Assembly (NCBI RefSeq): GCF_988242995.1
Contig: NZ_OZ547043.1
Reading direction: 5' to 3' (one strand)
DNA length: 64,000 bases
A model generated the notes under the pieces. It searched no databases. It was not told the DNA's origin and worked only from the letters and a program-made list of their open reading frames with translations. How positions within the stretch are numbered: the first letter of the stretch is position 1; each line of letters opens with the position of its first letter. A program made the translations under genes and the position numbers. Of the stretch, positions 57,679 through 57,826 are shown one piece after another.

Positions 57679-57705
57679 AGCCTGGCTTATCGCCGGGCTT
57701 TTTTA
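57679..57705 (+). terminator. Intrinsic terminator of argH
   Basis: agcctggc-ttat-cgccgggct imperfect stem followed by TTTTTT. Confidence 0.6.
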
Positions 57706-57710
57706 TGGCA

Positions 57711-57826
57711 AAAAAAAGCGGATCCTGGAGATCCGCAAAAGTTCACGTTGGCTTTAGTTATTCGAGTTGAGAAACTCTCGAAACGGGCAGTGACTTCAAG
57801 GGTTAAAAGAGGTGCCGCTCCGTTTC
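57711..57826 (-). ncRNA. oxyS: OxyS oxidative-stress sRNA
   Basis: Minus strand reads GAAACGGAGCGGCACCTCTTTTAACCCTTGAAGTCACTGCCCGTTTCGAGAGTTTCTCAACTCGAATAACTAAAGCCAACGTGAACTTTTGCGGATCTCCAGGATCCGCTTTTTTTT, matching my memory of OxyS; divergent from oxyR. Confidence 0.93.

Follow-up and report, generated by a model that had tools for sequence, protein, structure and literature searches.

The locus lies between argH and oxyR in a window of 64,000 nucleotides, the whole stretch of contig NZ_OZ547043.1 (assembly GCF_988242995.1) that was analysed. It contains the gene of OxyS, the oxidative-stress small RNA of E. coli and one of the most thoroughly studied small RNAs of bacteria. Its neighbours are annotated as argH and oxyR in K-12 and in the RefSeq E. 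coli genomes that match the window at up to 100% identity. The following features, given in window coordinates, are referred to throughout.

56282..57655, plus strand: argH coding sequence (argininosuccinate lyase), the last gene of the argCBH operon; from the open reading frame, RefSeq annotation and K-12 coordinates.
57678..57704, plus strand: argH intrinsic terminator with a 9-bp stem (57678-57686 / 57692-57700), the loop TTATC and a T6 run at 57699-57704; from terminator scan, fold and conservation.
57705..57709, no strand: spacer ATGGC, 5 bp, between both U-tract templates; AYGC in most other genera, its right edge being the junction of the manD/MFS replacement.
57710..57717, minus strand: OxyS U8 tail (A8 on the plus strand); from the mapped OxyS 3' ends and the RefSeq feature end at 57710.
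57718..57736, minus strand: OxyS terminator hairpin (stem-loop c), GCGGAUCU-CCA-AGGAUCCGC; from Rfam match, terminator scan and fold.
57710..57826, minus strand: oxyS gene (OxyS small RNA), transcription start at 57826; from RF00035, K-12 identity and fold.
57827..57921, no strand: divergent oxyS/oxyR promoter region with 5 substitutions relative to K-12, identical to CFT073.
57922..58839, plus strand: oxyR coding sequence; from the K-12 annotation mapped to the window and the RefSeq E. coli annotation.

The window as a whole corresponds to the E. coli chromosome segment from cpxA to btuB and is colinear with K-12 save for a few indels. An insertion of about 705 bp relative to K-12 (2725..3429) directly follows the cpxP/CpxQ terminator. 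This IS200-like element contains an ORF for a Y1 transposase (2868..3326, Pfam PF01797), and Rfam STnc490 was matched at 2735..2858. Between metL and metF, a 3.0-kb segment (29193..32202) is absent from K-12. Its minus-strand ORF at 29155..30285 (376 aa) gave no Pfam match, and at 30418..31971 a 517-aa 5'-nucleotidase/metallophosphatase with a signal-peptide-like N-terminus is encoded. Relative to K-12, the window lacks about 130 bp of intergenic sequence between yiiX and metJ (at 24975..24979) and about 300 bp between ppc and argE (at 53113..53118), and the intergenic stretches yijF-gldA (37511..37689) and yijO-eptC (48217..48258) did not align with K-12. Rfam matches above the gathering score were also obtained for ES036 (CssrF) in the pfkA-sbp intergenic region (5641..5682, minus strand), the ClpQY (hslVU) promoter element (19333..19390, minus strand), the L31 ribosomal protein leader before rpmE (24002..24054, plus strand) and the cobalamin riboswitch before btuB (62817..63006, plus strand).

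The identity of OxyS was examined with the Rfam covariance model RF00035. The match at 57717..57826 on the minus strand scored 139.5 bits (gathering score 75, E = 5e-30), covered the full model (positions 1-110 of 110) and contained no non-canonical pairs in its alignment. When the window was compared with K-12 MG1655, zero differences were found across 57672..57870, a stretch that includes both the oxyS feature and the argH hairpin. The RefSeq oxyS feature in K-12 at 4158278..4158394 corresponds to window 57710..57826 (near oxyS, the window position is the NC_000913.3 coordinate minus 4100568, a local relation), and the gene is identical to K-12 b4458 at 117 of 117 nt. The original prediction that OxyS matches the K-12 small RNA over its whole length therefore held: more than a few mismatches to the reference would have spoken against it, and the alignment showed none. 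The minimum-energy fold of OxyS consists of the stem-loops a, b and c, with an unpaired linker ahead of the terminator hairpin. By its covariance-model score, its three stem-loops and its position divergent from oxyR between argH and oxyR, the RNA is OxyS. With 100% identity to the K-12 RNA, its induction by hydrogen peroxide via OxyR, its binding to Hfq and its action on target mRNAs may be expected here as well.

Five substitutions relative to K-12 were observed at 57871, 57879, 57892, 57893 and 57907, clustered in 37 bp of the oxyS/oxyR promoter region, compared to none in the 117 nt of oxyS. The allele equals that of CFT073. In K-12, the promoter region (57827..57921) is where OxyR binds.

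The two ends of the convergent genes were then analysed by a terminator scan and by folding. Window 57640..57745 reads, in order, gcgcggttggggTAA gaacatttatatgtacaaattt GAGCCTGGC ttatc GCCGGGCTT TTTT atggc AAAAAAAA GCGGATCC tgg AGATCCGC aaaagttcacg. On the plus strand, the scan placed the argH hairpin at 57678..57700. Its stem has 9 pairs, of which 6 are G-C, the loop is 5 nt long, and TTTTATGGCA comes next. The hairpin lies within a fold of -18.6 kcal/mol, its sequence is identical in K-12, and the distance from the argH stop codon (ORF end 57655) to the start of the terminator is 23 nt. On the minus strand, the OxyS hairpin at 57736..57718 has 8 pairs and the 3-nt loop CCA and is followed by TTTTTTTTGC. 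The folding agreed with the scan for both hairpins. The T6 run (57699..57704) templates the argH U-tail and the A8 run (57710..57717) is the complement of the OxyS U8. The terminator coordinates originally predicted, 57679..57705 for argH and 57711..57735 for OxyS, were right within 1 nt, and the terminators are indeed only a few base pairs apart, with the 5 bp ATGGC between T6 and A8. The claim of a shared A/T tract was mistaken: T6 and A8 are distinct adjacent runs, one U-tract for each terminator.

A generic terminator scan found 3 candidates in 2.5 kb where 2.9 were expected from shuffled sequences. This count is not significant and the scan is therefore not evidence by itself. The case for both terminators rests on position, Rfam score, conservation and published 3'-end mapping.

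The 3' end of OxyS is taken from the literature. Term-seq in K-12 placed the primary OxyS 3' ends at 4158279 and 4158280 on the minus strand in two conditions (PMC7815308, supplementary file 1). These positions correspond to window 57711 and 57712 and lie within the U8 run, in identical sequence. With a second, independent method the end was located at 4158276-4158278 (tabulated ends of PMC10687069). With the primers PA313/PA314, the authors of PMC7815308 inserted a kan cassette exactly at the point where the U8 run meets GCCAT and thereby treated this point as the boundary of the two units. For argH, the searchable tables of PMC7815308 (Adams et al. 2021) and PMC10687069 list no 3' end on the plus strand near K-12 4158270-4158276. 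The sequence predicts an argH 3' end at roughly 57703..57708, and with this end both RNAs would finish about 3-8 nt apart without overlap. The proposal that the two 3' ends abut is thus borne out for OxyS by the published K-12 Term-seq data; for argH the end is a predicted one, with which "abut" would be a fair description. OxyS has a hairpin, a U-tract and a 3' end within the tract, and argH has a hairpin and a U-tract.

Since argH and oxyS are convergent and end within 10 bp of each other, we considered a single bidirectional or collision-driven terminator, where the transcripts overlap at a common hairpin and head-on collisions of RNA polymerase lead to release. A preprint that cites Ju et al. 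2019 reports that convergent E. coli genes commonly have bidirectional terminators between them (bioRxiv 10.1101/2022.10.23.513370). It describes this class as unlike intrinsic terminators, whereas the terminators of argH and OxyS are like them, being two separate hairpins, each with a canonical U-tract on its own strand. Both strands were folded, and for 52 species the T residues among the 8 nt that follow each hairpin were counted. When the OxyS hairpin was read on the plus strand, it was followed by AAAAGUUC, and the next 8 nt contained at most 3 T in all 52 species, compared to an A-run of 7 or more on the opposite side. When the argH hairpin was read on the minus strand, an A.C mismatch replaced the U.G wobble of the plus strand, which makes the hairpin weaker, and UCAAAUUUG followed. 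In the 52-species comparison, the 8 nt after the argH hairpin had a mean of 5.8 T on the plus strand and 3.7 on the minus strand. In addition, the mapped OxyS 3' end at 57711/57712 stops before the argH hairpin, so there is no overlap. A hairpin region common to both transcripts is not present at argH/OxyS. The bidirectional terminator was rejected on these grounds, and we regard it as highly improbable.

The conservation of the arrangement was analysed in a species-representative genome collection that was scanned with a conserved OxyS 17-mer. This returned 87 stretches, three of which were chance 17-mer matches with no OxyS hairpin and were dropped. The 84 OxyS loci that were kept, the window included, have argH as the upstream neighbour in nearly all cases. 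In 61 of the 84, at least 5 T, a spacer of 2-8 nt and at least 6 A stand directly before the OxyS hairpin. Of these 61 module loci, 50 have a T-run of exactly 6, 41 an A-run of exactly 8 and 48 a spacer that reads ATGC or ACGC. A stable hairpin (-10 kcal/mol or lower) was found just before the T-run in 53 of the 61 when the sequences were folded one by one. The stem sequences of the argH hairpin vary by lineage (GCCTGGC/GCCGGGC, GCCAGC/GCTGGC, CCCAAC/GTTGGG, GCTCGGG/CCCGGGC), and a MAFFT alignment showed double, compensatory changes in some of the argH stem pairs, from GC to AU and from CG to GC. Only 3 of 10 predicted pairs had double changes in this alignment, a low count that comes from stems out of register in an alignment made without regard to structure, and the per-sequence folds were relied on instead. 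In the alignment of 44 species, the OxyS stem core varies hardly or not at all, and together with the U-tract it forms the most conserved part of the module. The sequence upstream of the argH hairpin is unalignable between species. The counts of 61 of 84 and 53 of 61, with differing stems, argue that the module is old and has been maintained across Citrobacter, Enterobacter, Klebsiella, Raoultella, Kosakonia, Salmonella and Escherichia. The conservation fits a published account in which oxyS is located in the oxyR-argH intergenic region of Enterobacteriaceae and OxyS with its terminator goes back to the 3' end of an ancestral peroxidase gene (PMC8825220).

The conservation data also bear on another reading of the argH-proximal hairpin, namely a stem-loop that protects the 3' end after Rho-dependent termination further downstream, or a REP-like element. 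Stem-loops that protect 3' ends formed by Rho-dependent termination have been documented in E. coli (PMC6061677), and an argH 3' end missing from the Term-seq tables of PMC7815308 would be compatible with such a stem-loop. However, the protective stem-loops described in that study have no T-run like the T6 that directly follows the argH hairpin, and this T6 run is kept in 50 of 61 species. The 90-nt segment with the argH hairpin occurs at a median of 1 place per E. coli genome, with a maximum of 2. It is essentially single-copy and therefore not a dispersed repeat, and the REP-like reading was rejected. There is, in our estimation, hardly any likelihood left for a protective or repeat element at this position.

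We then compared the junction among complete E. coli genomes. The region was matched by 5425 of 5426 genomes, contiguously in only 3553. The remaining genomes, CFT073 and Nissle 1917 among them, have their match interrupted at window 57710. The 54 bp of window 57656..57709 (the argH 3' UTR and terminator) are swapped in CFT073 for about 3.1 kb (8900..12005 of its locus L002) that encode ManD (D-mannonate dehydratase) and an MFS transporter. On its right, this segment joins at 57709|57710, exactly at the A8/U8 run. At least 80% of the manD + MFS segment is present in 1861 of the 5426 genomes, about one third, and the same state was found in E. whittamii and another Escherichia species. The MFS gene of these strains lacks a canonical terminator of its own ahead of the OxyS hairpin, and in CFT073-type strains oxyS retains its own terminator only. 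From 57710 to 58000, the oxyS-oxyR side of the window is 100% identical to CFT073 despite the K-12-like argH terminator. The state of K-12 and the window is the ancestral one, because the 54 bp of the window are homologous to the module in other genera.

Changes at the same junction were observed outside of Escherichia. Citrobacter braakii and C. amalonaticus have a different segment of 2.5-2.8 kb between argH and oxyS, which carries a chitinase-like minus-strand gene with GH18 chitinase, CBM5/12 and, in C. braakii, ricin-lectin domains. The site is therefore a recurrent indel point. In E. albertii, the left arm of the argH hairpin is lost and GGGCTGTTTTTT is left as a remnant. In three Trabulsiella loci and one of Yokenella, the argH stop codon is about 2-9 nt from the A-run and there is no argH hairpin. 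In E. albertii, Trabulsiella and Yokenella, argH appears to be without an intrinsic terminator of its own. Together with the E. coli genomes that carry manD + MFS, these cases show that the tail-to-tail arrangement is dispensable and not obligatory. Seven loci of the Enterobacter / Lelliottia / Leclercia group have a new hairpin in the former place of the left arm of the old argH hairpin. The new hairpin reads GGCAAC-TTCG-GTTGCC and has ATTTTGCTTTT after it, and the old right arm with T6 (CGGGCTTTTTT) persists as a fossil beside AYGC-A8.

The conserved T6-AYGC-A8 junction might have a function beyond that of the two terminators, either as a preferred site of insertion and replacement or by a weak U6/A6 pairing in read-through RNA. 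Whereas the sequence upstream of the argH hairpin is unalignable, 48 of 61 species have retained the AYGC spacer. Independent large indels have the A-run as their boundary, namely manD + MFS in Escherichia and the GH18 chitinase-like gene in Citrobacter. The minimum-energy structure of the minus strand has U5 paired with A5 over the spacer, a pairing that the centroid structure lacks. On the other hand, the flanks of terminators are permissive insertion sites in general, as nothing is disrupted there, and the junctions showed no sign of an integrase, a repeat or an attachment-like site. Downstream sequence is known to affect termination, and four conserved bases between constrained tracts can be explained by such effects together with a low opportunity for substitution. 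A further function of the junction is therefore improbable in our view, and it is quite improbable that T6-AYGC-A8 is a recurrent cassette-swap site directed by a specific sequence feature or that the complementarity of U6 and A8 modulates the read-through RNA.

Taken together, our results suggest that argH and oxyS end at two independent, unidirectional Rho-independent terminators that are arranged tail to tail, to which we assign a probability of about 0.93. The readings as a bidirectional terminator, a protective stem-loop or an AYGC element with a function of its own are all unlikely. With two terminators, transcription of argCBH on the plus strand would stop at the GC-rich 9-bp hairpin and U6, 23 nt past the argH stop codon. 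Transcription of oxyS on the minus strand, starting from the OxyR-activated promoter divergent from oxyR, stops at the 8-bp hairpin and U8. In the characterised K-12 OxyS, the terminator hairpin and the U-tail are the 3' module that binds Hfq and stabilises the RNA. With the U-tract templates 5 bp apart, the two RNAs would end within a few nucleotides of each other and would not overlap. The terminators may thereby act as insulators: arg transcription would be kept from running antisense through oxyS and sense into oxyR, and OxyS transcription would be kept from running antisense into argH. The exact argH 3' end, the efficiency of termination and this insulating role are inferred.

The argH/OxyS arrangement, as first described in the original prediction, is already known and annotated. 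The value of the analysis lies mainly in a correct annotation, and the finding serves as a reliable landmark; both terminators are textbook examples and no concept is changed. What is added here is minor, namely the conserved T6-AYGC-A8 junction and its role as the boundary of lineage-specific gene cassettes. The conservation of the tail-to-tail module across the family and its replacement by the manD + MFS cassette in CFT073-type strains could be of interest to researchers working on small RNA evolution or transcriptional insulation.

When compared with known systems, the OxyS of the window shares with that of E. coli K-12 (RF00035, b4458) the sequence, the argH-oxyR position, the three stem-loops and the U8 tail. 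The gene itself is without differences, whereas the adjoining oxyS/oxyR promoter is the CFT073 allele, 5 substitutions away from K-12. Like canonical Rho-independent terminators, both elements have a GC-rich stem of 8-9 bp and a loop of 3-5 nt, followed by 6-8 U. There is no notable difference from this class; the argH and OxyS pair merely stands 5 bp apart on opposite strands. The bidirectional terminators of Ju et al. 2019, as summarised in bioRxiv 10.1101/2022.10.23.513370, likewise serve convergent units with 3' ends very close to each other. Unlike that class as described there, argH/OxyS has two hairpins, one-sided U-tracts and no overlapping transcribed segment. In the account that derives OxyS from the 3' end of a peroxidase gene, the terminator of that ancestral gene is proposed as the origin of the OxyS terminator (PMC8825220). 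The argH terminator is absent from that discussion, and to it we add that the junction of argH hairpin, T6, AYGC and A8 is conserved across much of the Enterobacteriaceae.
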